A stretch of DNA of 64,000 nucleotides from an uncultured virus (IMG/VR IMGVR_UViG_3300025139_000008) (taxonomy: Duplodnaviria; Heunggongvirae; Uroviricota; Caudoviricetes): IMG/VR virus record IMGVR_UViG_3300025139_000008. One strand, given 5' to 3'. A model generated the notes under the pieces. That model was given only the letters and a program-made list of their open reading frames with translations, did no database searches and was not told where the DNA came from. A program made the position numbers and the translations under genes. Positions 10,053 to 25,494 of the stretch are shown here, one piece after another (within the stretch, counting starts at the first letter, position 1; each line of letters starts with the position of its first letter).

Positions 10053-10136
10053 CAAAGTGGAAAAAGTGCTTGACCGAATCGGCTGGGTCTGCGACTCAGG
10101 ATGCACGGCGAATCACCGCCGCTAGGAGACGACCGA

Positions 10137-10382
10137 ATGCCTTTGAAACCCGACGCCGCCGCCCGTAAGGACGCACTAGGGGCGAATCACCCTGCAACCC
10201 TCCAACATCGGCACTTCGCCGTAATCGCTGGAATCCTCGCCAACCTCGACCGGGACAGCCTCGGCTTGACGCAAGGCCAGCACCAGAACATCGCGGAAGA
10301 CTTCGCGGATGGCCTCGCCAACACGAATCCGAAGTTTGACCGCAAGCGATTCATGGTCGCCTGCGGCTTCGCGGCCCCCTGA
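10137..10382 (+). CDS. hypothetical cassette protein
   Basis: GGAGA RBS after the promoter repeat; ends in NPKFDRKRFMVAC. Confidence 0.8.
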   Translation: MPLKPDAAARKDALGANHPATLQHRHFAVIAGILANLDRDSLGLTQGQHQNIAEDFADGLANTNPKFDRKRFMVACGFAAP

Positions 10383-10526
10383 TGGGGTGTCTCGACGCTA
10401 TCGCCCGGTTCTTTCTGGGCATCTTTCTGCTGATCCTTGCAACTGGGCTGGCCTCGTGCCAGCCCCTTTTCTTTCGGTAACCATTCGTTAAGGTTAACAG
10501 ATTGGCCCTAGACGTTAACCATTAAA

Positions 10527-10576
10527 GTGGAAAAAGTGCTTGACCGAATCACTTGAGCCGCCTAGAAACGAATCAG
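10527..10576 (+). promoter_or_regulatory. representative cassette promoter: A-tract, TTGACC, 17-bp spacer, TAGAAA, two GANTC sites
   Basis: TTGACC-gaatcacttgagccgcc-TAGAAAC-gaatca resembles the alphaproteobacterial sigma70 consensus (TTGAC / GCTANAWC). Confidence 0.85.
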
Positions 10577-10624
10577 CAATGCAGGGCGCGACTCGCACCG
10601 GGCAGCTACAAACGGAGACAGACC

Positions 10625-11032
10625 ATGCCGGAATTTTTGATCGAATACACGAAGACCGAAGTCACCCGCGAACGGGTGTGGATCGAAGCCGACTCGCCTG
10701 CTGAGGCGCTGCGGATTGTCGAAGAATACGAATTTGACAACTCGGAAAGCTACGAAGTCGATTCGCTGCGCTGGGAAATCAGCGACGCGGAAGTGCAGGG
10801 CGAGACGCCGGACGAAGATGATCCGGAACCGGACGAAACGGAACCGAACGCCTTGCCAGTCGCTATCACCTGCGACCGTGGCGACACCATCGAAGTCGTT
10901 CACCGGACCGCCACCATCGCCGAGGCGGAAGAATGGATTAGCGTTGGCCTTGCCGACGGTTTCCTTGACGAAAACGACGTTGACCAAGGCCGCTACGGAA
11001 TCGACGCGCCGGAAGAAATGGTTAACCCATGA
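10625..11032 (+). CDS. acidic hypothetical cassette protein
   Basis: GGAGACAGACC-ATG; very D/E-rich. Confidence 0.8.
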   Translation: MPEFLIEYTKTEVTRERVWIEADSPAEALRIVEEYEFDNSESYEVDSLRWEISDAEVQGETPDEDDPEPDETEPNALPVAITCDRGDTIEVVHRTATIAEAEEWISVGLADGFLDENDVDQGRYGIDAPEEMVNP

Positions 11033-11469
11033 GCCGGGCCATCGCAATCCTGATCGACCCGCAAGGCGAAGAATGGTTCATGGCTTACGGGCCGAAAACC
11101 AAGCTTCGCGACAAGGCGAGCCGCTACATCAGCGCCGAAGTGGCGATGAAAGCGGCGCGGGCGATCATATTCGGACACCCGGATGCGTTCTGGAATAGCG
11201 AGCGCCAGCACGCCGAAAACACCCGGCGGGAACACAAGGGCTGGTCCTACCGAATTGAGGAAGTGCCGGACCACGACCGCAAGCGGGAAGGTTTCAGCGT
11301 GGCACGTTATCAGGCCGGGACAAGCGTCTACCACTATCACGCAATCGGCGGGGGTTTCACCACGGAAGAGGGCCGGGCCGTTCTATGGCCCACCCGCGCC
11401 AAGGCGCTGGAAATAGCGCAAGGCACTGTCAGGCCGGAAGGCTGGAACGTTTGCGTGCAAGACTACTGA
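11029..11469 (+). CDS. hypothetical cassette protein
   Basis: ATGA coupling; followed by a terminator. Confidence 0.8.
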   Translation: MSRAIAILIDPQGEEWFMAYGPKTKLRDKASRYISAEVAMKAARAIIFGHPDAFWNSERQHAENTRREHKGWSYRIEEVPDHDRKREGFSVARYQAGTSVYHYHAIGGGFTTEEGRAVLWPTRAKALEIAQGTVRPEGWNVCVQDY

Positions 11470-11473
11470 GATC

Positions 11474-11499
11474 GGCGGGCTCCGGCCCGCCTTTCTTTT
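11474..11499 (+). terminator. intrinsic terminator (representative of about 20 in the array)
   Basis: GGCGGGC-TCCG-GCCCGCC followed by TTTCTTTT. Confidence 0.85.
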
Positions 11500-11620
11500 G
11501 CCGGTAACTAATCGTTAAGGTTAACGCATCGGTGTAAATTGTTAACCATCAAAGTGGAAAAAGTGCTTGACCGAATCACTTGAGACACCTAGAAACGAAT
11601 CACCACAACGGAGACGACCA

Positions 11621-11926
11621 ATGCAAAAGACCTTTCAAGTTTACAACGATCCCGGCCACGGCTGGTGCAAGGTGCCGCTCGCAGTCATCGAAGCGATCGG
11701 CCTGACTGAGGGACACTTTTCGTCCTATAGCTACCGCAACGGGGACGCGCTGTTCCTCGAAGAGGATTGCGACCTCGGCACCTTCGCAAAGGCTTTCACT
11801 GAAAAGACGGGCTCGCCGCCCTCTTTCAAAGATAACTACTGCAACGGACGCAGCCGCATTCGCAGCTTTGCGTCGGTCCGCTCGGGCGAAGGTTATGCAG
11901 CCATCGCAGCCGCAAGGGGATATTGA
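11621..11926 (+). CDS. hypothetical cassette protein (DPGHGW...LEEDCD)
   Basis: RBS after the promoter repeat. Confidence 0.8.
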   Translation: MQKTFQVYNDPGHGWCKVPLAVIEAIGLTEGHFSSYSYRNGDALFLEEDCDLGTFAKAFTEKTGSPPSFKDNYCNGRSRIRSFASVRSGEGYAAIAAARGY

Positions 11927-11927
11927 C

Positions 11928-12257
11928 ATGGGAGACTTGCTTGACCGTTGCCTTGCCCGTCCGGGGAAAAACTACGGACCCGGCTACGGCTTCGCCCTTG
12001 CCTATCTTGACGACAAGATGAACCCCGCTCACTTGCGGGACGGCGCTTGTCACATGGTCGGCAAGGCATATGGCCCGCACGGCTGGGCTGAGGCTCGCAA
12101 GAGTCCTGATCTGGCGGCATTCGTGCTTGCATACAGCGAAGCGGAATGCTTCGAAGACTTCGCAATCGAAGCGGCGCAATTGCTGCTCGAATGGGGAATG
12201 CGTGGCGATCCGGACGCCGCCACCGTGCTTCGCCTTTGCGGCCATCCGGGTTATTGA
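11928..12257 (+). CDS. hypothetical cassette protein
   Basis: Second gene of the cassette, followed by a terminator. Confidence 0.75.
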   Translation: MGDLLDRCLARPGKNYGPGYGFALAYLDDKMNPAHLRDGACHMVGKAYGPHGWAEARKSPDLAAFVLAYSEAECFEDFAIEAAQLLLEWGMRGDPDAATVLRLCGHPGY

Positions 12258-12414
12258 GAGAGGGGCTTCGGCCCCTTTCTTTTGTCCTTTACCTGCTGTT
12301 AAGGTTAACGCATAGGGGTAATTTGTTAACCATCAAAGTGGAAAAAGTGCTTGACCGAATCAGCGAATCGCCCTAGCAAGGAATCACCGCAATCAAGCGG
12401 CTGGAGACAAAACA

Positions 12415-12771
12415 ATGACCACTCGAATCAACAAGGGCCGCGACGGTTGGCAGGCCAAGACTGAAACCGATCTGCCCGGCCTCACCCTGACGGAAGGTGA
12501 AAAGACGAAGCAAGGGGTTCTGACTATCAGCACCCGCAAGACTTCGCGTGGCCTCGAAACCGGCGTCAGTGTCGCTTTCCGCGACGGCATGTTCCTGACG
12601 CATCGTCTTTACGAAGACTTCAACGCCCGTTATGCCGCCAGCACCGCACGCTGCACGGAAAAGGCGATCCGCTCTATGCATGACGAAGCGCTCGCCAATC
12701 TGGAAACCCTCAAGGGCCATGCATACGCCCACTATGGCATGACTGCCCCGGTGGAAAGCGAAGCGGCATGA
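12415..12771 (+). CDS. hypothetical cassette protein
   Basis: GGAGA RBS after the promoter. Confidence 0.8.
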   Translation: MTTRINKGRDGWQAKTETDLPGLTLTEGEKTKQGVLTISTRKTSRGLETGVSVAFRDGMFLTHRLYEDFNARYAASTARCTEKAIRSMHDEALANLETLKGHAYAHYGMTAPVESEAA

Positions 12772-13073
12772 TCGAGCGCGATCAATTCTTCGACATGTTG
12801 CAACGCGTCGCCAATGACGGCGTTTGCGGCCAGCCCCGGCCCTATTCGGGCCGGGCCATGTATGGCAAGCAGTGCATCGCAGTGTCCGGTGATTATCTGG
12901 ACGAATGGGCGCTTGCCGTCGCGCTGGGGCACCAGTGCCGTTGCTGGGGACTTGACGTTCGCGATCTGCCTTCGCCGGACAGCGATTCGCTTGGCCGAGG
13001 CCGCGTCCTCTATTGGCCGCAATACGAATGGCCGGACGACCAGCCCGAACCGGCGGACGAAGACGAAGACTAA
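12768..13073 (+). CDS. hypothetical cassette protein (YSGRAMYGKQC)
   Basis: ATGA coupling; terminator follows. Confidence 0.8.
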   Translation: MIERDQFFDMLQRVANDGVCGQPRPYSGRAMYGKQCIAVSGDYLDEWALAVALGHQCRCWGLDVRDLPSPDSDSLGRGRVLYWPQYEWPDDQPEPADEDED

Positions 13074-13219
13074 GGGAAGGCGGGGCAACCCGCCTTTTCT
13101 TTTGTTCTTTACCCGGCGTTAAGGTTAACGAAGAGTTACGATTAAGTGGAAAAAGTTCTTGACCGAATCAGTTACCTACCCTAGAACGAATCATCGCATT
13201 AAGCGATTGGAGACAGACC

Positions 13220-13492
13220 ATGCTTATGAACCCCTCTGTAAATATCAATGGCACCAGCCGCGAGGCTCTTGTCGATGCCCGCCGGGATGCCTTCGAAGCG
13301 ATCCACGCCGCCATGAATGCGCTTCGCGAAACCATGCCCCATGGCCGCGATTACGTGGGCCGGGCGCATCAATTCTCGGTGGACCGGGCGATCTACATGG
13401 AACGGCACGCCGTCCTGTCGAAGCTGTCCGAAGACCTGATGGACGAAGCGCTCGCGATCCAGAATGCCGGGGCACGGGGCGCTGTGGTATGA
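13220..13492 (+). CDS. hypothetical cassette protein
   Basis: GGAGACAGACC-ATG. Confidence 0.8.
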   Translation: MLMNPSVNINGTSREALVDARRDAFEAIHAAMNALRETMPHGRDYVGRAHQFSVDRAIYMERHAVLSKLSEDLMDEALAIQNAGARGAVV

Positions 13493-13729
13493 CCTACATT
13501 CATCACGAAACATTCAGCAGCCCGGAAGCCGATGAGAACGAAAACGAGCGGACGCCGAGAAACGCGCAATGGAATATGAGAGAGGGGCTTAGGCCCCTCT
13601 TTCTTTACCGGAAACCACACGTTAACCTTAACAGACCAGCCGAACTCGTTAACCATCTGTGTGGAAAAAGTGCTTGACCTAATACAGCGACTCGCCTAGA
13701 AACGAATCACTTGAAACGGAGACAAGACC

Positions 13730-14428
13730 ATGAAACTTTTCCCTGATGCCGCCGCCCTCGAATCATCCGGCTATCTTTTCCGGATCACTGACAACGGCGG
13801 CGAAACCTTTGACAGAATCACCGTCACGTTTTGCGATGGCGACGCGCTCGTTTGCACGCTCGGGACCATTTGCGCCCACGTTGAACGGGTTGACGTTCAA
13901 GTTGACGCAGAAGCCGTCGAATCCGGCGAGGCGCGGGACTTGCGCTGGATTGATCTGGACCCCGGCCTGCAATCGCGCATCCTTGCCGATCTGAATAACG
14001 GCTTTGCGGATTATATCGAAGCCGCGCCCGCAGCCGCGACTCGGGACGAAGCCCGCGACTGGGAAGGGCTATGGGATCACTACAGTGATAAACGTTCGCC
14101 GATTTATAAGTTGGGGGATTATTATCGCATCCGCGATGATGAGCGCGACAATGAAAACGACGATGACGATGACGCCTTTGAGACGCCAGCATTCGCTACG
14201 TTCCGGGACGCCTTATTCTACATGTTGCCAACCGACTATGACTTGAGCGGCCCGGAATATCACACCACGGTCGATCTCTGGGATACCGAAGGGGGACCGG
14301 CTGAACCTTGGGAAAAGGAACAGGATTGCGGTCAATGCGAAGGCACCGGCACAATCGAAGGCGGACCGGGCGGTGATGGGGAGGATGAGGAATGCCCCGT
14401 CTGCGATGGGAAGGGCAAGCAGGGATAA
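13730..14428 (+). CDS. acidic protein with C-terminal DnaJ-type CxxCxGxG zinc finger
   Basis: CGQCEGTG...CPVCDGKG; own promoter and terminator. Confidence 0.8.
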   Translation: MKLFPDAAALESSGYLFRITDNGGETFDRITVTFCDGDALVCTLGTICAHVERVDVQVDAEAVESGEARDLRWIDLDPGLQSRILADLNNGFADYIEAAPAAATRDEARDWEGLWDHYSDKRSPIYKLGDYYRIRDDERDNENDDDDDAFETPAFATFRDALFYMLPTDYDLSGPEYHTTVDLWDTEGGPAEPWEKEQDCGQCEGTGTIEGGPGGDGEDEECPVCDGKGKQG

Positions 14429-14587
14429 ACTAGGCGGGCTCCGGCCCGCCTCTTTTCCCGGTAACCCGGCGTTAACCTTAACAAATCGGACTAAGTTGTT
14501 AACCATCAAAGTGGAAAAACTACTTGACCGAATCACTTGTGCCGCCTAGAAACGAATCACCGCAATCAAGCGGTTGGAGACTTGACC

Positions 14588-15010
14588 ATGCCTAAGTGGC
14601 AATACAGTGGCGACCTTGATCTGCGAGAGGGCGGATTCTTCTGGCTGGACAACGGCGATGAAGACTGGGTGGCAGCCGTAAGCGTGACCCCTTGCAGCAG
14701 CGCAAGCGGGCCTGACAATCTGTTCTATATCGAGTCGGGCTCGATCTACTTTGCCCGCGATAAGTATGCTGACTATCTGTCAGTGATCGGCATGGAACCG
14801 GAAGACGCGACTCGCGAAGACGTGATCTACGCCGCGCACGCCTATGCTGGAATCGAGCGGGACCACGAAACGGTCGTCCGAATTGGTAAGGACGAAAGAG
14901 CGTCGGACCCTTGGCGGTGGAACGATTCGGGGTGGAACCCGGAACCCGATGTAGTGCTGCGCGGTAATGCGAGCCTGCAACGTTGGGTTGAACGCGAGTA
15001 TCTGTCATGA
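14588..15010 (+). CDS. hypothetical cassette protein
   Basis: GGAGA RBS after the promoter. Confidence 0.8.
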   Translation: MPKWQYSGDLDLREGGFFWLDNGDEDWVAAVSVTPCSSASGPDNLFYIESGSIYFARDKYADYLSVIGMEPEDATREDVIYAAHAYAGIERDHETVVRIGKDERASDPWRWNDSGWNPEPDVVLRGNASLQRWVEREYLS

Positions 15011-15255
15011 ACGCCGATGCAATCGAAGCGGAAGCCGCCGCAATCGCCCAAGCCGTTGCCGAGCGTAAGGCCCGGCCCTATCAGGCCGATGACAAGGCCC
15101 TAGTGGCGGCCTACCTTGCCGCCTCTGGTGTCGCGGGCTCACGCTCTTGGGAGATAACCCCGGAAGCGTTGGACTTGCCCTACCCTGTGTGGGCGGCCAT
15201 CCGGGCGGCCTACTTCGAAGCCGCGTGCAAGTGGAAGCGGGAGTCCGGCGCATAG
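15007..15255 (+). CDS. hypothetical cassette protein
   Basis: ATGA coupling. Confidence 0.7.
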   Translation: MNADAIEAEAAAIAQAVAERKARPYQADDKALVAAYLAASGVAGSRSWEITPEALDLPYPVWAAIRAAYFEAACKWKRESGA

Positions 15256-15377
15256 CCGGGCTCTTTCCCGGTAACCATCCGTTAACCTTAACAAGTCGTT
15301 ACCACTAAGTGGAAAAAGTGCTTGACCGAATCGCTTGCGTCACTTAGAAACGAATCAGTTGAAACGGAGACAGACCA

Positions 15378-15881
15378 ATGCCTGAATTTCAAATGGATAA
15401 AGAGGGAACCGTCAATGGGATGGTTTTCGCCGATCTCTCCATGATCTTTCAGGGTTACGTGGAAGCGATGCTTTTCACGGAAAACTCGCCCGGCAATAGC
15501 ATGGTCGATTGGCTGGATGATGAAGTGCAGGCAGGCTTGCGGGAAGGCACCATTGACGGCTGCATTCCGGAAGATGCGGGCTGGGGTGATATTCACCCCG
15601 AATCGGCTGAGCGGATGCAACTCGATTGCCTTAACTTCGAAGTGCAAGCCCGCGATCTACTGGCGCAAGCCTATGAGCGCGACTATGACGCGGCGCAAGC
15701 GGGCCGGGATTTCTGGTTCACTCGCAACGGTCACGGCGTCGGCTTTTGGGACCGCAAGGAACTGGAAGCGGACGGGCTGGGGGATGCTCTCACCACCATC
15801 GCCGAGTCGTTCGGGCAAGTGTATGTCGATTTCATCGCAGACCCTGAAAGCCCGACCGGTTACGGTTACGTCCACGTCTGA
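15378..15881 (+). CDS. acidic hypothetical protein (GRDFWFTRNGHGVGFWDR)
   Basis: Single-gene cassette with promoter, RBS and terminator. Confidence 0.85.
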   Translation: MPEFQMDKEGTVNGMVFADLSMIFQGYVEAMLFTENSPGNSMVDWLDDEVQAGLREGTIDGCIPEDAGWGDIHPESAERMQLDCLNFEVQARDLLAQAYERDYDAAQAGRDFWFTRNGHGVGFWDRKELEADGLGDALTTIAESFGQVYVDFIADPESPTGYGYVHV

Positions 15882-16035
15882 GAGGGGAGGGGCCTTGCGC
15901 CCCTCTCTTTTTGTCCGGTAACCTATCGTTAAGGTTAACGTGCCGGCCGATCTTCTTAACCATCAAAGTGGAAAAAGTGCTTGACCGAATCACTTGGGTC
16001 ACCTAGAAACGAATCAGTTGAAACGGAGACAGACC

Positions 16036-16275
16036 ATGCAAACAGCTATTGAACGCCTCAAGGAAGCCGCCAAGGACTCATTCATGAAGCCGCAATCCTA
16101 CATGGGTGCGGACATTCAGGAAGCGATTATGGAAGCCGGGCTCGATCTGGAAGACGACAAGATTTATGCACGCCTCTCGGCTCCGGGCTATCTCGATTGC
16201 ACTGATTGGAGCGGTCCCTTCGACACCACGGAAGAGGCCGCACAAGCCTTGCTGGACCTCTACTTCGAAGATTGA
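16036..16275 (+). CDS. acidic hypothetical protein (ARLSAPGYLDCTDW)
   Basis: Single-gene cassette. Confidence 0.8.
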   Translation: MQTAIERLKEAAKDSFMKPQSYMGADIQEAIMEAGLDLEDDKIYARLSAPGYLDCTDWSGPFDTTEEAAQALLDLYFED

Positions 16276-16434
16276 GAGTAGGGGCTTCGGCCCCTCTCTT
16301 TTTGCCCGGTAACCAGCCGTTAACCTTAACAGCGTGGTAACTAAGTGGAAAAACTTCTGGACGAATTGGCTTGCGAATCACCTACGACTCGCCTATCAAG
16401 AGTTCAGCGCAATTCCGCGCTTGGAGACGACCAA

Positions 16435-16884
16435 ATGTCATCACCTTTCCTACCTTCGGTGCAAGAGCAACTACAAGCTCGCCGCGACGAATCGGACGAC
16501 GGCTTCGCCTGCGTTCATATCGATACCTGTCTTTCATCCTTTCTGAATGACCACCACAATCGCGATGGCGAATTGCTGCTGGGCGCAATCGTCTTCGGCG
16601 ATACTTCCATCGGTGAAGTCAAGAACGAACTGCTGAGCGAGTTCGACTCGGTGGCTTACGATCTGGCTGGTGAGCGTGCTGGCTATGACCACGACAAGGC
16701 TCGGAAAGCGATCCTGCGTGCGTTTGTGGACGTTCATCCCATGGAACTGGACCGGAAAGCTTTCGATCCTTCGCTGGATTTCCGCGACGAAGAGGACGAC
16801 GGCTTCGGCTGCGAGGAATACTGTCAAGCGTGGTTCCTCATTACGTGGAACGTTCCGGAAGAGGAGGACGAGACATCGGATTGA
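16435..16884 (+). CDS. acidic hypothetical cassette protein
   Basis: GGAGA RBS; variant promoter. Confidence 0.8.
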   Translation: MSSPFLPSVQEQLQARRDESDDGFACVHIDTCLSSFLNDHHNRDGELLLGAIVFGDTSIGEVKNELLSEFDSVAYDLAGERAGYDHDKARKAILRAFVDVHPMELDRKAFDPSLDFRDEEDDGFGCEEYCQAWFLITWNVPEEEDETSD

Positions 16885-17075
16885 TCGACGCACTCGCCCG
16901 CCTAGGTGTGGGCGTCCTCTTCCTTATCCTTGCAACTGGGCTGGCCGCGTGCCAGCCCCTTTTCTTTTGGTAACCATTCGTTAAGGTTAACAACAAGTGG
17001 AGTTCGGTGGAAAAAGTTCTTGACCAAATCGCTTGCACCGCCTAGAAACGAATCAGTTGAAACGGAGACAGACCA

Positions 17076-17596: not shown

Positions 17597-17752
17597 GGGG
17601 AGGGGCTTTGGCCCCTCTCTTTTTGTCTGTAAAAATTCGTTAAGGTTAACAGCCCGATAACCACTGGAAAAATAAATGGAGAAAGTGCTTGCGTGAATCG
17701 AATCACCGGCCTATTACCGAATCACCGGCACGGAGCCGGAAGGAGAAAGACC

Positions 17753-18199: not shown

Positions 18200-18369
18200 G
18201 CCTTCGGGCTCTCGGCAGAGGGGCAGGGTTTGGTCGCCCTGCCCCTCACCTTTTTCTGGTAGGGACCCGTTAACCTTAACAAATAGGGGTGGGTTGTTAA
18301 TCGTGGAAAAAGTGCTTGACCGAATCAGTGGATAATGGCACCAACGAATCACCACAAAGGAGACAGACC

Positions 18370-18839: not shown

Positions 18840-18947
18840 CCTTAACAGAAGTGTTTCACTTGTTAACCAACTTTGAAGTGGAAAAAGTGCTTGACCGAAA
18901 CAGCGAATCACCCTAGACCGGGATCACCAACAACGGAGACAAACCAA

Positions 18948-19346
18948 ATGAGCGAACACGCAATCAGCAATGCACGGGGCTGGCTCTCGACAATCGTCGG
19001 GGCGATGGCCGCGCTGGAAGCCCTGAACGACGGAGCCGAATCGGCTGAGTTCGACGGGGAGACCTTCACCGACCCGGACGACGTGCAGAACCGGATTCAG
19101 GAAATGCCGCTTTCCGTGGAAGTGCGCGACGGATGGCGGGCACCGGGCGGCGAATCGGAGCCGGAAGAGTTCGCGATTCTGCTCTCGACCGGCGGACCGG
19201 CCTTGCGGGTATATGGTGACATCGGCGGCGAACCTTTCTTGCAGTGGCAGGACTGGGGCACGCCGTGGACCACCTACCATGACACCACCGAACAGGAAGA
19301 CGAGGCCCTGCAAGCCTTTGTCGGAATGTTCTATCTCGGCGAATAA
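18948..19346 (+). CDS. acidic hypothetical protein (LLSTGGPA...QDWGTPW)
   Basis: Single-gene cassette. Confidence 0.85.
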   Translation: MSEHAISNARGWLSTIVGAMAALEALNDGAESAEFDGETFTDPDDVQNRIQEMPLSVEVRDGWRAPGGESEPEEFAILLSTGGPALRVYGDIGGEPFLQWQDWGTPWTTYHDTTEQEDEALQAFVGMFYLGE

Positions 19347-19515
19347 GGAAAGGCGGGGCAACCCGCCTTTTTCTTTGGGTGTAAACATTCGTTAAGGTTA
19401 ACGGAATCGGTCTATCGTGTTAACCATTCTTCAAAGTGGAAAAAGTGCTTGACCGAATCGCTGGAAAATGCGAATCAGGGTTTACCGGAAGAGACCGGAA
19501 AACAGGAGACAGACC

Positions 19516-19821
19516 ATGAAGACACTTTTTGAAATCCCGACCCGTGGCGATGACATGACCATGCCGGGCGGCATCGCGCTGCGCTACAACGAAAACCGCG
19601 AAGAGTTTGTGGTCCACAACTACAACACCGACCGGGAGACAGGCACCGAACGCAATTACTTTGGTGGCGGCTACTACTGCTCGGGCACACCGGCGGAACG
19701 TCTGAGCGGGGCCATGGCAGACCTCAGCAAGCGGGTTGCACGTCAGAGCAATTACGATCTGGGCGGCTCCATTGATGTGGAAGCTTTGACCGGACTCCCT
19801 GCCCGGCTCTACGCCATCTAA
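19516..19821 (+). CDS. hypothetical cassette protein
   Basis: AGGAGACAGACC-ATG. Confidence 0.8.
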   Translation: MKTLFEIPTRGDDMTMPGGIALRYNENREEFVVHNYNTDRETGTERNYFGGGYYCSGTPAERLSGAMADLSKRVARQSNYDLGGSIDVEALTGLPARLYAI

Positions 19822-20038
19822 TACCGGGACCCGGCACCCTGAGAACAGGGGCCGGGTTTCCAAACACCGGCGGGACCCGGCCCACTGAGAACAAGGGCCG
19901 GGTTTCCAAATTGGTAACCAATCGTTAAGGTTAACAAATTGATGAAATGAGTTAACTATTAAAGTGGAAAAAGTGCTTGACCGAATCGCTGGGAACGGGC
20001 AAACGAATCAGGCGCACTCAAGCGCAGGAGACAGACCA

Positions 20039-20326
20039 ATGCCCAAACTTTACAATGCGGACATTAGCATCACCGCGACCGCCTATGTGATCGCTGAGAA
20101 CGAAGACGACGCACGGGAAAAGATTAGCGCCCTTCAAGGGGACTACATCGAATTTTCCGACCGCCGCCAGCAAGTGGCAGACGACCTGTTCGTGACCGGC
20201 GAAACCTATGGCCCTGATATGCCGAAACTGTCGCTGAGCCCTGCTATGACCATCAACCACAGCGCGACTCGCCCCTATGTCTGTCTGGTGCAGGAACTGA
20301 CCGGCGAAGAAGAGGATGTAGGATGA
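20039..20326 (+). CDS. hypothetical cassette protein
   Basis: AGGAGA RBS. Confidence 0.8.
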   Translation: MPKLYNADISITATAYVIAENEDDAREKISALQGDYIEFSDRRQQVADDLFVTGETYGPDMPKLSLSPAMTINHSATRPYVCLVQELTGEEEDVG

Positions 20327-20598
20327 TGCACGAAGCCAATCAATCCCGGATCGACTGGGCAAAGAACGCCCTCGATACCTTCACCATCGAAACCTATGGC
20401 GGACGGCCTTACTCGACGCTTGAAGCGCAATGCGCCGACTGCGAAGAAGGTGAGGGTGACGACTACACGGCCATCCAAGACCTTATCGGTGATTTGCTCC
20501 ATGTGGCCCACGAAAGAGGCTGGAACACAGCCGAACTAATCCGGCGGGCGGAAGCCAACTTCGTCTATGAAGCTGCACCGGACTATCAAGGCGACTAA
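20323..20598 (+). CDS. acidic hypothetical cassette protein
   Basis: Coupled ORF; terminator follows. Confidence 0.8.
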   Translation: MMHEANQSRIDWAKNALDTFTIETYGGRPYSTLEAQCADCEEGEGDDYTAIQDLIGDLLHVAHERGWNTAELIRRAEANFVYEAAPDYQGD

Positions 20599-20932
20599 GG
20601 GAGAGGGGCTTCGGCCCCTCTTTGCTTTTTGGTCGTTTTGGATCACCGCCGCTTTGGATCGACGCGACTTTGGATCGCCCCGGTTTTGGGTTTGGATCAT
20701 TTCGATTTTCATGATCGCCGCCATTTTGCAGGAGCCCGGACCGACCGACCGAACCAGCCGACCGAGCCCCACGCTCCCCACCAGCAGATGGTTAACGAAA
20801 CTGACCAATCTGTTAAGGTTAACGCCGGCGGCCGAATCCGTTAAGGAATATGGTTAACAGATTGGCTGATTTTGTTAACCATCAAAGTGGAAATAGTGCT
20901 TGACCGAATCAGCGAATCGGTCCATACCCGAA

Positions 20933-21046
20933 TGGTAAATGGCTGGACAGCCAGATCAAGGAACTGGATTGCGATTGGGGCGACCCTGTTTCACCTGAAT
21001 GCGAATCGCATCTCTATTGAGGGAGCGGGCTTCGGCCCGCCTCTTG
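20933..21046 (+). ncRNA. candidate small RNA (cassette with promoter and terminator but no RBS-led ORF)
   Basis: Promoter at 20900, hairpins including GGG-GCGA-CCC, terminator GCGGGC-TTCG-GCCCGC. Confidence 0.4.
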
Positions 21047-21187
21047 GCTGGTAACGGTTTGTTAAGGTTAACGGTCGGCCGGGATTTGTTAACCATCAAA
21101 GTGAAAAGTAAGTGGAAAAACTGCTTGACCGAATCGGCTTAGACTGGCACTAACGAATCACCGCAATCAAGCGGACGGAGAAAGACT

Positions 21188-21274
21188 ATGAGCCGACACC
21201 AGAAACGCCGCCTTGCCGCCAAGCGTGCGCGCATCGCCATTCTTTCCTCGTGGATCGCAAAGGGCCGCCGCTAA
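21188..21274 (+). CDS. 28 aa basic peptide MSRHQKRRLAAKRARIAILSSWIAKGRR
   Basis: GGAGA RBS after the promoter; TAATG coupling to the next gene. Confidence 0.65.
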   Translation: MSRHQKRRLAAKRARIAILSSWIAKGRR

Positions 21275-21540
21275 TGGCTGGCTTCTGGGATCGCGTGGAC
21301 ACCCTCGAAATGGTGGAACTCTACGCCGAGGACAACGGCCAGATTGCCAGCGAAGAGGAGCTTTCCAAGCGCTTTGACGAAGAAGTGCTTCCCGATGTGA
21401 TCGCACACTACGGCGAAAACGATTCGGTTGCTATCAATGAAGAATTTAGCAACTGGTCGGACATGCTGTGTAAGGACGGCGAAATTCACCCGGAACAATA
21501 CAATTCGTATTGCTACGTTGGAAAGCTGGCAGACGACTAA
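21274..21540 (+). CDS. highly acidic small protein
   Basis: Coupled start MAGFWD. Confidence 0.8.
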   Translation: MAGFWDRVDTLEMVELYAEDNGQIASEEELSKRFDEEVLPDVIAHYGENDSVAINEEFSNWSDMLCKDGEIHPEQYNSYCYVGKLADD

Positions 21541-21651
21541 GGCGAGGGGCTTAGGTCCCTCACCAAACTTTTTTTTTGTAATTAGTGGAAAAAGTGCTTG
21601 ACCGAATCGGTTGGTTCGCCTAGAAACGAATCAACAGCAACGGAGGCAGTC

Positions 21652-21756
21652 ATGCAGATCAACACCTACCACGTTTACATCAACAACACCTTTTCCGGGA
21701 TCATCTCGGCGGTGTCTTACCGGCAAGCGCGCCAGCGCGCTAAGGCCAAGGTTTGA
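21652..21756 (+). CDS. 34 aa peptide resembling the N-terminus of 26214..26486
   Basis: GGAGG RBS; sole ORF between promoter and terminator. Confidence 0.65.
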   Translation: MQINTYHVYINNTFSGIISAVSYRQARQRAKAKV

Positions 21757-21918
21757 GGGGAGGGGCTTCGGCCCCTCTTTCTTTTTGCCCGGTGAAATTT
21801 GTTAACCTTAACGAATATGGTTAACAAATTGACGTTTGGGGTTAACTATCAAAGTGGAAAAAGTGCTTGACCGAATCGGTGACTCGTGCGAAAACGAATC
21901 ATCAATCGGAGACAGATC

Positions 21919-22050
21919 ATGCAAAACATCCGCAAGAATCCCATTGCCGCCTCGCTCGCCAGCGCTCACCTCGCCCCTCGCAAGGTTCGCGCTCGTAAAG
22001 GCAAGGGCTCTTTCCGCCGCAACCCCAAGCATCGGGGAGTGGCGGCATGA
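21919..22050 (+). CDS. ArfA-like (alternative ribosome rescue factor-like) peptide, 43 aa
   Basis: MQNIRKNPIAASLASAHLAPRKVRARKGKGSFRRNPKHRGVAA carries the N-x-I..L.....R.....KGKGS-aromatic-x-R..KH signature; GGAGA RBS; below the ORF-track cutoff. Confidence 0.7.
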   Translation: MQNIRKNPIAASLASAHLAPRKVRARKGKGSFRRNPKHRGVAA

Positions 22051-22229
22051 GCCGCGCTCGCAACACCCTCGACTCCCGCTATAGCGTGCGCCTCGAATGG
22101 TGCGGACGTGCGACGCAGCAATGGGTTGCCCGCTTCTGTGGTGATTGGCTCGGATGCGACTCGACCCGCTCGGGCGCTGAGGAAATCGCCCGTCTGTATG
22201 AGCGCGACCGCTGGAGCATGGCAGCATGA
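22047..22229 (+). CDS. hypothetical protein (EWCG...WVARFCGDW)
   Basis: ATGA coupling. Confidence 0.75.
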   Translation: MSRARNTLDSRYSVRLEWCGRATQQWVARFCGDWLGCDSTRSGAEEIARLYERDRWSMAA

Positions 22230-22570
22230 GCGACCGCATCCGCCCCGTGACTTTCGACTCGGCCCAGATCGAGCCCTTTGCTGCTCGCATCATCGGCATA
22301 GCCGCTTCGCAATTCTGTCGCCTCAAAGAGCGCGAGAAAGAGACCGGAGAGAAGTCGGACCCCTTCGACATGGAAGATGCTCTTATGCATCTCTGGTGGG
22401 CTCTCAAGGGGCTTGATCACATTGCAATAGCGTTACGCGGCGGCAGGGACTGCGACGACGTGTCAGGCGTTCATTTTTCCATGGTGATGAATGCGGAACA
22501 CAGCAGGATTCGCCGCCTCATCATGGAAGAACTTGGAGTCGATCCCGGATCGCATCCGCGCTGGAAATGA
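22226..22570 (+). CDS. hypothetical cassette protein
   Basis: ATGA coupling; terminator follows. Confidence 0.75.
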   Translation: MSDRIRPVTFDSAQIEPFAARIIGIAASQFCRLKEREKETGEKSDPFDMEDALMHLWWALKGLDHIAIALRGGRDCDDVSGVHFSMVMNAEHSRIRRLIMEELGVDPGSHPRWK

Positions 22571-22777
22571 GGGGCTTCGGCCCCTCTCTTTTTGCCCGGT
22601 AACCCCACGTTAAGGTTAACCGATCGGGCGAAGTTGTTAACCATCAAAGTGAAATTGAAGTGGAAAAAGTTCTTGCACGAATCAGCGAATCGCCCTAGAC
22701 CCGAATCACCGGGCGGCACCTACTGACTGGCAGAGCAGCAGCAAGGCTCGCCCGGTAACTCACACAGGAGACAGGCT

Positions 22778-22939
22778 ATGTTCGAAGTCAAGACCACCCT
22801 GCGGACCTACAAGGTCGAAGCCAATCACATCAACGCCGCTTTCATCGCCGCAAACGTGCTGGCAGTGGAAGGCGAAGAAATCCTTTCCGTGGCCTATGCT
22901 GGGCCCGTCACGTTCATCATCGTGGAGATCGCGGCATGA
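22778..22939 (+). CDS. 53 aa hypothetical protein
   Basis: AGGAGA RBS; coupled to the next gene. Confidence 0.7.
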   Translation: MFEVKTTLRTYKVEANHINAAFIAANVLAVEGEEILSVAYAGPVTFIIVEIAA

Positions 22940-23154
22940 TCAGCAAGAAAGATGCCATCGCCAAGGCAATCGCGGCTGGAGCCTCGGAGGAGGAAATTGA
23001 TCGCCAAGCCGCAAACTACGTCCGCCAAGTCGGCACCGTGCCTTTCAACAACATGATTCGGGCTCTCAACATCGGCCCTTGGCACAACACCGTTGACGAC
23101 TGGACTCGGCTGGCAGCAGCCCTGACCGCGAGGGGATTGGCGCGAAAGCGCTAA
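22936..23154 (+). CDS. hypothetical cassette protein
   Basis: ATGA coupling. Confidence 0.75.
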   Translation: MISKKDAIAKAIAAGASEEEIDRQAANYVRQVGTVPFNNMIRALNIGPWHNTVDDWTRLAAALTARGLARKR

Positions 23155-23274
23155 TTCCTTAACGGAATTGATGAATTTGTTAAGGTTAACGCGAATTAAG
23201 AATAAAGTGGAAAAAGTGCTTGACCGAATCAGTTAACCATCCTAGAAACGAATCAACAGCAACGGAGACACACA

Positions 23275-23487
23275 ATGAAGATCAAGATCAAGACCACCGC
23301 TCGCTACACCGCAAAGCGCAAAGCCGCCATCATCGCCGATGTGGACAACGGCACCACCACCCTCGAAGACGTTTGCAGCCTGCACAACATCACAAGCGAA
23401 GAGTTTGCTGGCTGGCGTAAGTCGCTGGATCGCTCGGGACAGCAGGGGCTTCGGATCACTCGCCTGCAACACTACCGGGCAGCATAA
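23275..23487 (+). CDS. sciP: SciP / DUF1153 family small CtrA-inhibitory protein homologue
   Basis: RYTAKRKAAII..V..G..TLEDVC..HNITSEEF..W...LDRSG..GLR.TRLQHYR matches the SciP pattern RW...RKA.VV..V..G....EEAC..Y.LS.EEF..W....DRHG..GLR.TR.Q.YR. Confidence 0.85.
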   Translation: MKIKIKTTARYTAKRKAAIIADVDNGTTTLEDVCSLHNITSEEFAGWRKSLDRSGQQGLRITRLQHYRAA

Positions 23488-23637
23488 GGGGAGGGGCTTC
23501 GGCCCCTTTTCTTTTGGCCTTAACCCAGTGTTAAGGTTAACAGATCAGCCGAATTAGTTAACCAATTAGCTGGAAAAAGTGCTTGACCGAATCAGCGAAT
23601 CACCTTAGACCCGAATCACAAACAACGGAGACAGACC

Positions 23638-23880
23638 ATGCGTTTTCTTTCTGCAACCCTTATGGCCCTCGGCCTTTTAGCTGGTTATGGTGCTTTCTAC
23701 ATGACAGCGAACATTGACCTAACCCCGCTCGCCCCTGAGGCCCGGACCGTCACCCAGATGCTCTTTAACGCCCTTGCTATGTGCGGGCTTTGCCTGCCCG
23801 CCTTGTCGATGCTAGCGCTGCACGACGACGCAAACTTGCGCCGCCAGTATCCCCACCGCTATCGCAAGAATCGCCGCTAA
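23638..23880 (+). CDS. small two-TM membrane protein
   Basis: Two hydrophobic segments and a basic C-terminal tail. Confidence 0.75.
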   Translation: MRFLSATLMALGLLAGYGAFYMTANIDLTPLAPEARTVTQMLFNALAMCGLCLPALSMLALHDDANLRRQYPHRYRKNRR

Positions 23881-24044
23881 TGGAAACGCTGGCAGAATAT
23901 CGCCACAAGCGCGACCGGGCAATCGTTCAACGCCGCATGGGCGAAGAGCGCCGCCGCCACGTCAATCAATGCGTGGCTGACATCATCGCACAAGGTAAGA
24001 TGGAAGAGCGCCGCCAGACCATCCGCCGGGAGGAAGATCAATGA
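23880..24044 (+). CDS. hypothetical protein (METLAEYR...)
   Basis: TAATG coupling. Confidence 0.65.
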   Translation: METLAEYRHKRDRAIVQRRMGEERRRHVNQCVADIIAQGKMEERRQTIRREEDQ

Positions 24045-24241
24045 CAGACCGCCGATTCGTTATCGTGGAAAACGCCGGATATGAAGGCGAAAAAGACATC
24101 ACCCACTTTCTCACCTTGCGGGAGGCATTCGCCTATCAGCGCGGCCATTATGAGCCGGACGAGATCGAAGAATTGCACGTCGATATTCGCCAAGACTGGA
24201 CGGACGAAAACGGCGATTTTCATCAGGAATATGTCTATTAG
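24041..24241 (+). CDS. acidic hypothetical protein
   Basis: GGAGG RBS; coupled. Confidence 0.75.
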   Translation: MTDRRFVIVENAGYEGEKDITHFLTLREAFAYQRGHYEPDEIEELHVDIRQDWTDENGDFHQEYVY

Positions 24242-24308
24242 GTGGAAAAAGTGCTTGACCGAATCGATGGACTATGCGAAAACGAATCATCGAAACGGAG
24301 ACAAGCAA

Positions 24309-24503
24309 ATGACCACCATCCTGATCCTCGCAATCGCCTTCCTGATCACCGCCACCGTGGCAATCATCAAGGCCCGCGCCGAACTCGCCGCTCACGCCGC
24401 CGAACAGGCAAGCAAGCATATCCCCAACCCAACCGAATACACCGGCCCGCGCTTCACCGCACATGGCCGGGAAATCCAACAGACCGGACGCCGGATCATC
24501 TGA
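24309..24503 (+). CDS. single-TM small protein
   Basis: GGAGA RBS; hydrophobic N-terminus. Confidence 0.75.
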   Translation: MTTILILAIAFLITATVAIIKARAELAAHAAEQASKHIPNPTEYTGPRFTAHGREIQQTGRRII

Positions 24504-24659
24504 GAAAGGGGCGGGAGAAATCCCGCCCTTTTCTTTGTCTGGTAACCGGGTGTTAAGGTTAACAAAACGGTTAAATTCGTTAACCATCAAAGTGGAAAAA
24601 ATGCTTGACCGAATCGGCTGGTATGTTTAGACCCGAATCACTGGAAACGGAGACAGACC

Positions 24660-24857
24660 ATGAGCAATTCCACCGAACAAGCAATGGCCGCCGACCTCGA
24701 CCTTTGCGACATGATCCTTGCATTCGGAACGCCTGCCGCCAAGCGCAAGGCCCGCGCCCACCGCAAGGCTTGTTTCGCAGAAATCGCCCGGATGAACGCC
24801 GAGTCTGGGACTGACAAGCTGAGCGATGATGAATTACTCGCCGAATTGATGGCCTGA
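24660..24857 (+). CDS. hypothetical cassette protein
   Basis: GGAGACAGACC-ATG. Confidence 0.8.
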   Translation: MSNSTEQAMAADLDLCDMILAFGTPAAKRKARAHRKACFAEIARMNAESGTDKLSDDELLAELMA

Positions 24858-25045
24858 CAGGAACCGGCCCCTGACAACAGGGGCCGGGACCCTAATTCAC
24901 TGAGAAAAGGGGCCGGGCTCCAAAATCGTAAATTCAGGTTAACCTTAACCGATCGGCCGAAATCGTTAACCATCAAAGTGGAAAAAGTGCTTGACCGAAT
25001 CGGCTGGCGCGTTTAGACCCGAATCACTGGAAACGGAGCCAGACC

Positions 25046-25321
25046 ATGGAAAGATTCGAACTGACAGGCTCGGGCATCAGCGACGGGCAGAATCCGGAAA
25101 AACTGCTTGCCGCCGCGAAAAAGTGCGGCCTTCACAATCCCCGACTCGCCTATCACTTCGGCTGGTCGAATCAGCCGAAAACGATTCGTTTCAGCGCTGA
25201 AAGCTGGGAAGCTGCCGATAAGGTCGCCGATCTGGTGCGAACCGAATTTTACCCGGAAAATGCCGAGGGCCGTTTGTGCCCGATGATTCGGGCCTATCCG
25301 GTGAAAGCCCCGGAAGCCTGA
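25046..25321 (+). CDS. hypothetical cassette protein
   Basis: GGAG RBS; terminator follows. Confidence 0.8.
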   Translation: MERFELTGSGISDGQNPEKLLAAAKKCGLHNPRLAYHFGWSNQPKTIRFSAESWEAADKVADLVRTEFYPENAEGRLCPMIRAYPVKAPEA

Positions 25322-25494
25322 TCCCGGAAAAGCCCGATTCGCCGAATCGGGCTTTTTCTTTGGCGGTAATCTCTGGTTAACCTTAATAAAACGGCGAAAT
25401 TCGTTAACCCTAAAAATCGGGATTTTCTGGAAAAAGTGCTTGACCGAATCGGCCTTTTCTGGAAAAACCGAATCACCGCAAACGGAGAAATGAC

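Follow-up and report, generated by a model that had tools for sequence, protein, structure and literature searches.

The window, meaning here the whole 64,000-nucleotide stretch of viral DNA that was analysed, carries a tandem array of small-gene cassettes (Table 1). Repeat finding recovered 27 copies of the promoter core (family D5), all on the + strand between positions 10052 and 25457. In each cassette, a terminator hairpin and GTTAAGGTTAAC/TTAACCAT boxes are followed by an A-rich upstream element and the -35 hexamer TTGACC; next come box 1 (CGAATCR), a spacer of 17 bp, and either TAGAAA or an extended -10 (TGn), and then box 3 (CGAATCA), the predicted start, a ribosome site (GGAGA), and a small ORF. 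Comparison with NCBIfam and PHROGs left 37 of 38 cassette ORFs without a named function, the exception being a SciP-like ORF, and a Pfam screen returned no match for 43 of 44. The window phage is large and aquifer-derived.

Table 1. Promoter cassettes and neighboring features of the window, with positions of GANTC sites (boxes)
Feature	Position	Strand	Details
Upstream field of GTTAAGGTTAAC/TTAACCAT boxes, 5' of first cassette	8630..10052		Repeat and motif listing
Seven tandem repeats in upstream field	9585-9751		~28 nt each; repeat finding
Promoter-cassette array	10070..25475	+	27 copies; repeat finding and promoter listing
Promoter 1	10070..10105	+	GANTC at 10076 (CGAATCG), 10093 (CGACTCA), 10110 (CGAATCA)
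Promoter 2	10540..10575	+	10546, 10570, each CGAATCA
Promoter 3	11567..11602	+	11573, 11597
Promoter 4	12351..12386	+	Three sites: 12357, 12365, 12381 (GGAATCA)
Promoter 5	13159..13194	+	13165, 13188
Promoter 6	13674..13709	+	Box 1 lost (CTAATA); spacer CGACTCG 13689; box 3 13704
Promoter 7	14524..14559	+	14530, 14554
Promoter 8	15322..15357	+	15328, 15352; RNA-run contig begins 15373, 16 nt past predicted start
Promoter 9	15981..16016	+	15987, 16011
Promoter 10	16358..16393	+	Degenerate (TGGACG); 16375 (CGAATCA), 16386 (CGACTCG)
Promoter 11	17020..17055	+	Box 1 lost (CAAATC); box 3 17050
Promoter 12	17689..17724	+	TTGCGT; 17695, 17700, 17719
Promoter 13	18316..18351	+	Extended -10 type (TGGCACCAA); 18322, 18346
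Promoter 14	18891..18926	+	Box 1 (CGAAAC) and box 3 (GGGATC) both lost; spacer box 18905
Promoter 15	19449..19484	+	Box 1 19455; second box 19472
Promoter 16	19977..20012	+	19983, 20005
Promoter 17	20900..20935	+	20906, 20914; box 3 lost (CGAATGG)
Promoter 18	21125..21160	+	Extended -10 type; 21131, 21155
Promoter 19	21598..21633	+	21604, 21628
Promoter 20	21867..21902	+	21873, 21881 (TGACTCG), 21896
Promoter 21	22673..22708	+	TTGCAC; three boxes: 22679, 22687, 22703; RNA-run contig begins 22717, 9 nt past predicted start
Promoter 22 (SciP-like gene)	23220..23255	+	23226, 23250; spacer holds TTAACCAT (23233-23240)
SciP-like (DUF1153) cassette gene	23275..23487	+	70 aa; profile match, CtrA-inhibitor homologue
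Promoter 23	23583..23618	+	Three boxes: 23589, 23597, 23613
Promoter 24	24255..24290	+	24261, 24284
Promoter 25	24605..24640	+	24611, 24635
Promoter 26	24991..25026	+	24997, 25021
Promoter 27	25440..25475	+	25446, 25470
Right end of cassette region	26520..26575		Seven GANTC sites in 55 nt, two hairpins

The promoter model is coherent: the -35 hexamer is TTGACC, the spacer measures 17 bp, A occupies -11 in 97%, TGn is seen where the -10 hexamer is weak, and the RNA contigs are placed accordingly. In two metatranscriptome runs, 13 contig pieces, 100% identical to the window, avoid every promoter zone (P ~3e-5 for random placement), and 7 of the 13 start 9 to 31 nt downstream of a predicted start. 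We read the 27 repeats as sigma70-type promoters, used by the host RNA polymerase, for small phage genes that are each terminated separately, a reading held with moderate confidence jointly with that of the boxes given below. The cassette genes are probably early, judged only by gene size, position, and promoter type.

With the T of TTGACC numbered 0, GANTC is found at offset 6, directly 3' of the -35 hexamer, in 23 of the 27 promoters (as CGAATC(A/G) in 22 and TGAATCG in one) and again in 23 at offset 28-30, 3' of the -10 and 5' of the predicted start, so that both sites are present in most copies, as stated in the preliminary description. Its wording that a third site is often present was somewhat generous: 11 promoters have an additional GANTC at offset 8-24, and only 6 have three sites. 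GANTC was counted 58 times in the promoter cores, which at 46 nt for each of the 27 total 1242 nt, versus 196 times in the remaining 62758 nt. Dinucleotide shuffling (100 shuffles) produced 1.35 ± 1.33 copies of the pattern GAATC-N17-21-GAATC (maximum, 6), whereas the window itself has 21, of which 20 lie within 10546-25474 and one at 60638.

Pooling the window with three related sequences (G002, G003, and XM05) yielded 119 unique promoters. Of their 236 promoter-zone GANTC sites, 228 fit YGAKTCG, as opposed to only 19 to 28% of non-promoter sites, and 232 have A or C as the middle base. The YGAKTCG consensus is on the template strand in 225 of the 228 fitting sites, so that the non-template strand carries the box as CGAATC(A/G) and the template strand as (T/C)GATTCG. 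The CGAATC columns after TTGAC, which were not used for selection, are 89 to 99% conserved, whereas information drops to about 0 to 0.3 bits in spacer columns 17 to 22. G003 retains the boxes despite 60% GC and a different upstream element. In the cultured, more distant phage vB_EliS-L02 (21 matches in a box-pair search versus 0 for the control), both boxes are shifted by 1 nt. The conservation of the box columns next to a near-random spacer and the retention of boxes in G003 and vB_EliS-L02 argue for selection, not shared descent. A spacer box does not significantly more often accompany a lost box 1 (7/16 versus 24/103; Fisher p = 0.12).

All the promoters are clearly copies of one module, and the boxes might have no regulatory reader at all, representing instead polymerase-intrinsic context, a conserved 5' end of the mRNA leader, or copying via duplication or recombination. 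If transcription started a few bases upstream of the predicted position, the mRNAs would share GAAUCA as their 5' end, and the RNA contigs do begin only 9 to 31 nt downstream of the predicted starts. We find this explanation highly improbable: the spacer columns are randomized and the box columns are not, boxes survive in relatives with only 1 to 17% alignable DNA in the cassette region, and accidental upkeep of ~60 copies of the genome's most avoided word would be odd. Moreover, a natural control is provided by 19 rows of unrelated AT-rich viral contigs, which share the 17-mer upstream element and the -35 with the phage promoters but, in 18 of 19 cases, have no GANTC at the box spot. To our knowledge, there is no sigma70 contact at -29 to -25, which also counts against this explanation.

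Among large lytic phages, T4 and T5, for example, have early arrays of many strong, near-consensus sigma70 promoters, used by the host polymerase, with A-rich upstream elements and small genes of unknown function. We know of no host methylation-reader site embedded in T4 or T5 early promoters, whereas in the window phage the candidate reader site equals the -35 itself in conservation (119 promoters).

Outside the cassette region, GANTC ranks first of 256 abNcd words in under-representation in the window, G002, and G003 (observed/expected [O/E] ratios of 0.45, 0.50, and 0.39, respectively), and it is likewise the most avoided word (rank 1/256; O/E, 0.35) in 360 kb sampled from an Erythrobacter chromosome. 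Thus, GANTC is "seen" by selection. Under a stricter model conditioning on 4-mers, the depletion outside promoters is modest (O/E, 0.80 to 0.92). The host is likely an Erythrobacter-like bacterium, whose family has GcrA and a CcrM-type methylase. In the family of an Erythrobacter MAG, GcrA (PF07750) is encoded in 61 of 61 genomes and a CcrM-sized PF01555 methylase in 60 (E values of 1e-61 to 1e-71), the 61st having one at 3e-42. The DNA-binding domain of Erythrobacter GcrA aligns without gaps to Caulobacter residues 1-45 and is identical at the methyl-pocket residues W3, W15, R33, N34, I37, and G38. A check for gcrA or ccrM homologues in the phage, suggested earlier, found neither: PF01555 and PF02086 methylases and GcrA were not detected in five related records (XM05 and G001 to G004), nor was PF01555, the sole family searched there, in vB_EliS-L02. 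The 12-mer CTTGACCGAATC is not used as a promoter in the host-family genomes.

According to three reports on Caulobacter crescentus (Haakonsen 2015, PMC4647560; Wu 2018, PMC5887438; Wu 2023, PMC9976885), GcrA prefers m6A-GANTC in the contexts TGATTCG, YGAKTCK, and YGAKTCG at sigma70 promoters, as the preliminary description had correctly stated, and the sites bound by GcrA have TGATTCG as their MEME consensus. Reverse-complementing CGAATCA yields TGATTCG, and CGAATCG gives CGATTCG, which fits YGAKTCG; the phage boxes therefore match the GcrA-preferred context, as had been claimed. Like the phage promoters, PcsM and PmipZ have a sigma70-type core, and in GcrA/CcrM promoters the start lies no more than 40 bp from the GANTC of TGATTCG/YGAKTCG. 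On the non-template strand, the PcsM scaffold in the GcrA-RNAP cryo-EM structure reads TTGACA-N7-CG(m6A)ATCC, placing its site at -22..-18; the phage spacer box, at -21..-17, has the identical strand orientation. In these reports, the Caulobacter promoters mostly have one box each, in classes at -20 ± 1, -30 ± 2, and +2/+5 to +30, and sites are nearly absent around -10. Taking the A after box 3 as the predicted start, the phage box centers are at -27, -19, and -3, so that only the optional spacer box (-19) is squarely within a known class, box 1 is 1 nt outside one, and box 3 is in a zone almost empty in Caulobacter. The phage genome further differs in having 27 tandem cassettes with one to three boxes per promoter, mostly two or three, and main boxes that abut the -35 and fill the discriminator, positions rare or unreported in Caulobacter.

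The best reading, to which we give about an even chance, is that the boxes are methylated by the host and read by GcrA-RNA polymerase. Host CcrM would methylate the adenines of the box GANTC sites, and host GcrA, bound to sigma70 domain 2, would be carried along as part of the holoenzyme; its N-terminal domain would dock at a box located beside the -35, within the spacer, or in the discriminator and aid polymerase binding and promoter opening, giving strong cassette expression dependent on the host CcrM/GcrA state. Unlike in Caulobacter, we infer methylation of the sites, GcrA binding and action, the effect on transcription, and expression timing from sequence alone. The GcrA reading makes predictions at the sequence level, and these were borne out: the sites have the extended context and the PcsM strand orientation, and the likely host family encodes both GcrA and a CcrM-type methylase. 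Counting against it are the centers of boxes 1 and 3, the number of boxes, the methylase search of the phages, which found none, the modest GANTC depletion under the 4-mer model, the nonsignificant link between spacer boxes and a lost box 1, the YGAKTCG sites within cassette bodies, and the nonuse of the 12-mer in host-family genomes. By such promoter boxes, the phage probably ties ~27 small genes into the host epigenetic machinery. If the virion DNA is unmethylated, a methylation-dependent promoter would be unable to fire at once.

Boxes 1 and 3 keep a strict 24-bp spacing, even in vB_EliS-L02 with its shift relative to TTGAC, and the CGAATCR boxes could accordingly be operators, two direct repeats bracketing the core promoter, for another sequence-specific protein that acts independently of methylation and GcrA. 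This could be an unannotated cassette protein, serving auto-shut-off or activation, or a host factor; most cassette ORFs have no function assignment, leaving room for a DNA binder. Such operators would also fit the position of box 3, rare for GcrA sites in Caulobacter, and the 3.3-fold enrichment of YGAKTCG within cassette bodies, far from any start, which is not accounted for by the promoter-proximal model. We nevertheless regard them as unlikely, since the base-for-base GcrA consensus in the PcsM orientation would be a coincidence and the tolerated variants (CGACTCR and, in promoters outside the array, two inverted CGATTCG) all stay within YGAKTCG. The genome-wide GANTC purge, seen in the phage and the host alike, points to the CcrM/GcrA system, and a 17-bp spacer with one box after each hexamer would automatically give a 24-bp spacing.

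m6A lowers duplex stability, and its placement in the discriminator (box 3, -5 to -1) and beside the -35 might allow methylation itself, not the GcrA DNA-binding domain, to act by altering duplex stability or polymerase contacts; fully, hemi-, and unmethylated copies would then differ in strength, creating a replication-coupled clock. Box 3 is inside the region melted in the open complex, no phage methylase was found, so that the methylation state must track host CcrM, and the discriminator at -7 to -4 is contacted by the basic patch of GcrA and not by its DNA-binding domain in the structural work (PMC4647560; PMC5887438; PMC9976885). However, CcrM methylates any GANTC, which leaves the strict flanks and middle base (228/236 YGAKTCG) unexplained and makes action by methylation itself very unlikely; these features indicate a reader with the specificity of GcrA.

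The GcrA reading has a precedent in the prophage-like 26-gene operon of Brevundimonas subvibrioides, described as GcrA-dependent (Adhikari 2021, PMC7987155). Both this operon and the window array involve phage-type genes, but in Brevundimonas a single operon of structural genes lies on the chromosome and its dependence on host GcrA was measured, whereas the window has an array of small-gene promoters in a virulent-type phage, with dependence predicted from sequence. phiCbK, cited as carrying a GcrA homologue, and Erythrobacter phage vB_EliS-R6L, with its CcrM-like methylase, likewise engage the host CcrM/GcrA module; in contrast to these phages, the window phage carries the cis sites and a SciP-like protein, and neither trans factor was found in the five related records. 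A literature search found no paper on GcrA-type boxes in phage promoters.

The CtrA-off/GcrA-on gate and the epigenetic shut-off proposed in the preliminary description are speculative. Strong enrichment of the CtrA half-site TTAACCAT, together with the SciP-like homologue among the cassettes (which scores below the NCBIfam equivalog cut-off), makes a link of the phage to the host cell-cycle circuit plausible.

The window derives from a large tailed phage, whose marker genes are listed in the table. The interval between the large terminase and PhoH genes is filled by about 45 small plus-strand ORFs arranged in cassettes, and the genes for the major capsid protein, the tape measure protein, and GTA-like tail proteins lie 3' of the portal gene. 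The closest named relative is Erythrobacter phage XM05 (~80% identity across 17% of a 16-kb query); the other one, vB_EliS-L02, is far more distant. Both were cultured on Erythrobacter strains, XM05 on Erythrobacter sp. JL475, and both share the promoter design of the window phage. The latter probably infects an Erythrobacter-type alphaproteobacterium. DNA of the window is present in 18 aquifer metagenome runs.

Positions of selected genes and of the tail module in the window
Feature	Position	Remark	Family match
Large terminase gene	6869-8599		
SciP-like (DUF1153) gene	23275-23487	cassette gene, 70 aa	PF06627, E 6.5e-20
PhoH gene	27080-27898		
Lipid-desaturase-like gene	28794-29315		PF10520, E 9e-34
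Portal gene	29713-31476		
Tail module	45018-50477	GTA-type	DUF2460; phiJL001 Gp84 N-terminal domain with BR0599; NlpC/P60; Rcc01698-like

Repeat finding in the window recovers 27 copies of a promoter module. Its 5' part consists, in this order, of a GC-rich hairpin with a T run, GTTAAGGTTAAC/TTAACCAT boxes, and AAGTGGAAAAAGTG-CTTGAC-C; the 3' part continues with GAATC(A/G), a variable stretch of about 12 bases, CCTAGAAA or TGnCAnnAA, C-GAATC-A, roughly 10 further bases, and GGAGACAGACC-ATG. According to the preliminary description, most cassette promoters carry two GANTC sites, often with a third in the spacer. The first part of this claim is borne out, as 23 of the 27 promoters have a GANTC directly 3' of the -35 hexamer (box 1) and 23 have one between the -10 element and the predicted start (box 3). 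The additional site is also real, although "often" was slightly generous: a further GANTC between boxes 1 and 3 is found in 11 of the 27 promoters, and three sites are found in six. Every promoter of the window has at least one GANTC and 25 have at least two. The spaced pair GAATC-N17-21-GAATC occurs 21 times in the window (1.35 expected), with 20 of these occurrences within the array.

We assembled a set of 119 unique promoters, drawn from the window, the XM05 locus, and two complete related virus records (G002 and G003); it was built from whole records, and the sole selection rule was the presence of no more than 3 mismatches to an 18-mer covering the upstream element and the -35 hexamer. 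At least one GANTC is present in 116 of these promoters and at least two in 104. The six CGAATC columns that follow TTGAC played no part in the selection and are 89-99% conserved, equal to the -35 hexamer, whereas columns 17-22 carry 0-0.3 bits. Column 25 is an A in 97% of the set, which marks it as the -11 adenine and thus places the -10 hexamer in columns 24-29, with a 17-bp spacer. Hexamers without TA come with TG at -15/-14, i.e., an extended -10 (TGn) element. By its sequence, the core promoter can be assigned to the sigma70 type, with TTGACC, a 17-bp spacer, an A at -11, and TGn accompanying weak hexamers. The start is predicted at the A directly after the second GAATC, which puts box 1 at -29 to -25, the optional spacer box at -21 to -17, and box 3 at -5 to -1. 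An ECF-sigma or sigma54 reading of the repeats was dropped in view of the consensus sigma70 -35 hexamer, the 17-bp spacer, and the invariant A at -11; TGGCA is seen only within the TGn extended -10 elements.

Among the matches listed, 13 contig pieces with 100% identity come from two aquifer metatranscriptome runs, one of which, X22, has 8 of its 10 pieces in this list. None of these 13 pieces overlaps the 95-nt promoter zones (P of about 3e-5 under random placement), and 7 of them start 9 to 31 nt past a predicted start. These data hint, if weakly, that each cassette is a transcription unit with the predicted boundaries; contigs cannot prove the starts, and stretches of the region with no RNA cover are uninformative. 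Two wastewater runs labelled RNA-Seq (X19 and X20) were left out of this comparison, as they probably represent DNA of divergent relatives with chimeric joints.

The boxes persist in relatives with different surrounding sequences. In G003, with its 60% GC content and the upstream element CTGGAATAAGTG, 19 of the 21 promoters retain box 1 and 17 retain box 3. The pattern CTTGACNGANTC-N15-21-GANTC has 21 matches in the whole XM05 genome, all on a single strand, against 0 in the control, and TTGACGANTC-N15-21-GANTC likewise has 21 matches in vB_EliS-L02 against 0 in the control, in a region almost without alignable DNA. Box 1 of vB_EliS-L02 is shifted one base into the -35 hexamer, with the C of TTGAC as its flank, and in most promoters box 3 is shifted along with it, at a distance of 24 bp (23 bp in 3 of 21). 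Two lone promoters of this type that lie away from the array, at 25596 (+) in G003 and 17526 (-) in G002, have the post -10 box inverted (CCGATTCG), so that the box orientation is not absolutely fixed. Several unrelated AT-rich viral IMG/VR contigs (L007, L009, L041, L042, L053, and others) share the 17-mer TGGAAAAAGTGCTTGAC without a mismatch; in them, A-rich spacers and TATAAT-like hexamers come next. When the collection was scanned with this 17-mer alone, 18 of the 19 rows from such contigs had no GANTC at the box 1 spot, which indicates that the upstream element and the -35 hexamer do not require the GANTC word. The 17-mer itself looks like a strong upstream element with its -35 hexamer, either generic or arrived at by convergence.

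The sequence context of the boxes matches that preferred by GcrA, the host cell-cycle factor. In the accessible text of Haakonsen et al. 2015 (PMC4647560), the motif derived from GcrA-bound sites is TGATTCG or, more broadly, YGAKTCK, and the corresponding part of the work of Wu et al. gives the consensus as YGAKTCG. The reverse complement of TGATTCG is CGAATCA, which accounts for 142 of the 236 promoter-zone GANTC sites, with another 76 being CGAATCG and the remainder mostly CGACTCA or CGACTCG. The GcrA-preferred context claimed for these sites in the preliminary description thus stands: YGAKTCG fits 228 of the 236 promoter-zone sites, compared with 19-28% of the GANTC sites outside promoters, and in 225 of these 228 the consensus is on the template strand. 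CcrM methylates any GANTC, so the strictness of the promoter sites points to a reader with the specificity of GcrA. The direct repeats could instead be read by another protein, or methylation could act without the GcrA DNA-binding domain, e.g., through easier melting of the discriminator; both explain the exact consensus match less well, and so does the reading in which the boxes have no reader at all. Judging from the sequence, the most economical interpretation is that the cassettes have sigma70 promoters with GcrA boxes, whose GANTC sites would be methylated by the host CcrM and then read by GcrA carried on the RNA polymerase holoenzyme.

The likeness to Caulobacter promoters is greatest for the spacer box. 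The PcsM scaffold in the GcrA-RNAP cryo-EM structure, as described in the accessible part of the source, has TTGACA-N7-CG(m6A)ATCC on the non-template strand, with the box at -22 to -18; the phage boxes have the same strand orientation, and the spacer box is one base off in position. The site classes given in the available text for Caulobacter are -20±1, -30±2, and +2/+5 to +30. Relative to the predicted start, the phage spacer box (centre -19) fits the first of these, whereas box 1 (centre -27) misses the second by 1 nt; the box 1 centre in vB_EliS-L02 would be at -28 if the start moves along with the box. Box 3 (centre -3, again from the predicted start) falls in a zone that, in the Caulobacter data accessible to us, is nearly empty of sites, and the same data describe mostly single-box promoters. 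The downstream class has no counterpart in the form of high-ranking sites piled at +1 to +30 (the window has 3 of 94 there, G002 has 5 of 128). In a test for compensation, the spacer box is not significantly commoner where box 1 has been lost (p = 0.12). The positions of boxes 1 and 3, the multiplicity of boxes, and the lack of a phage methylase all speak against counting the phage promoters as full members of the Caulobacter class; with no phage methylase, methylation of the injected DNA is hard to account for.

Both the reader and a candidate writer are widespread in the likely host family. An Erythrobacter MAG chromosome was reached via a GTA-like tail protein, and 61 genomes of its family were surveyed. 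GcrA (PF07750) is encoded in all 61, and a PF01555 methylase, within an open reading frame of ~360-490 aa and with E values of 1e-61 to 1e-71, in 60 of them (3e-42 in the remaining genome); this enzyme is presumably GANTC specific. The N-terminal domain of Erythrobacter GcrA aligns without gaps to residues 1-45 of Caulobacter GcrA, with W3, W15, and the methyl-pocket residues R33, N34, I37, and G38, the latter named as such in the accessible text of Wu 2018 (PMC5887438), being identical. The preliminary description had proposed a search for gcrA and ccrM homologues in the rest of the phage genome. PF07750, PF01555, and PF02086 had no match in six-frame searches of XM05 and the four related virus records (G001-G004), PF01555, the only family searched there, had none in vB_EliS-L02, and a Pfam search of 89 window ORFs returned no sigma factor, regulator, or methylase. 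The 12-mer CTTGACCGAATC has 26 matches in 41 host-family genomes, whereas its reversed control has 6. The contexts of 12 matches were inspected and looked mostly coding, and this result argues neither for nor against the GcrA reading.

A count of GANTC inside and outside the promoters, also proposed earlier, showed it to be concentrated in promoters and avoided outside the cassette region. There, it is the most under-represented of the 256 abNcd words under a first-order Markov model, with observed/expected ratios of 0.45 in the window, 0.50 in G002, and 0.39 in G003; it is also the most under-represented one in a 360-kb sample of the Erythrobacter MAG chromosome (0.35). Dinucleotide shuffles of the rest of the window gave 262.6±16.2 sites versus 117 observed, and under a 4-mer-conditioned model the depletion is only mild (0.80-0.92). 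No such depletion of GANTC is seen in the cassette region once the promoters are masked, and YGAKTCG is even enriched there, about 3.3-fold in the window (10000-26700; 40 versus 11.9±3.4) and likewise in G002 (71900-95000; 56 versus 17.6), but not in G003 (13 versus 11.2). These extra sites are scattered over gene bodies and terminators, not near starts, and the promoter reading does not account for them. Of the ~100 top-ranked GcrA-type sites in 16 kb, 58 are in promoter cores and ~40 are in gene bodies or terminators. Seven GANTC sites within 55 nt at the right-hand margin of this region (26520-26575) make up two hairpins (GGGCGAGTCG..CGACTCGCCC and CGATTCGC..GCGAATCG), and the terminator at 25331-25353 likewise consists of CGATTCG/CGAATCG.

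The promoters are also associated with TTAACCAT, which is given as a CtrA half-site in the accessible part of PMC3692519. It occurs 23 times in the window, versus 0.88 expected; 22 of these copies lie at 8.6-25 kb, and the half-site typically ends 5 nt ahead of GTGGAAAAAG; the match to CtrA sites near promoters is to this half-site (the full site is TTAA-N7-TTAAC). One of the cassettes encodes a SciP-like protein, which scores 67.7 bits against the NCBIfam equivalog model NF051866 ("CtrA inhibitor SciP"), below the cut-off of 100, over model positions 28-90 of 90, and is best described as a DUF1153/SciP-like homologue, not a confirmed SciP. Its gene is kept in 5 of 5 related phage records, and its promoter (23220-23255) has TTAACCAT within the -35/-10 spacer (23233-23240), as does that of the G002 orthologue. 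Used as a query against host genomes, the protein found no relatives. The enrichment of TTAACCAT and the conserved SciP-like gene make a link of the phage to the CtrA/GcrA circuit plausible. The CtrA-off/GcrA-on gate and the epigenetic shut-off proposed in the preliminary description are speculative. CtrA is an activator of ccrM in Caulobacter, and with a putative SciP-like inhibitor of CtrA and no phage methylase, replicated phage copies might stay unmethylated. It is conceivable, though we consider it unlikely, that the cassette region is an epigenetic device, a repressor-free switch whose promoters would fire only on a methylated template and be silent on progeny DNA, while the sites would draw GcrA-loaded holoenzyme off host cell-cycle genes.

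GcrA and CcrM are a textbook case of bacterial epigenetic transcription control, and nearly all studies of this system concern chromosomal cell-cycle genes. In the literature searched, largely outside subscription journals, we found no published description of GcrA-type boxes in phage promoters; a term search of the accessible text of the vB_EliS-L02 paper found no mention of GcrA, CtrA, or methyltransferase, and "promoter" only in a reference title. If a family of large lytic phages embeds the GcrA word in every small-gene promoter, this would be a virus using a host m6A reader for entry into transcription. The family would then also supply natural promoters whose boxes occupy new places, next to the -35 hexamer and in the discriminator, as a test of the "flexible-linker" model of GcrA. 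In combination with the SciP-like gene and the CtrA half-sites, this design would offer a handle on the coupling of phage infection to the alphaproteobacterial cell cycle. As XM05 and vB_EliS-L02 were cultured on Erythrobacter, the idea is directly testable.

Several other features of the window deserve mention. Dense arrays of GTTAAGGTTAAC and GTTAACCTTAAC, in both orientations, occupy 8630-10052 and the regions upstream of most cassettes. A tandem array of seven repeats, each about 18-28 nt long (TATGGATCGAGGCCATTTTGC) and containing GATC, is located at 9585-9751, with one more copy at 25696-25723; those at 9585-9751 look iteron-like. The lipid-desaturase-like gene lies, as does PhoH, between the cassettes and the portal gene, and the two are possibly auxiliary metabolic genes. 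The DUF2460 protein of the tail module shares 52% identity with a protein from an Erythrobacter MAG chromosome (L127).
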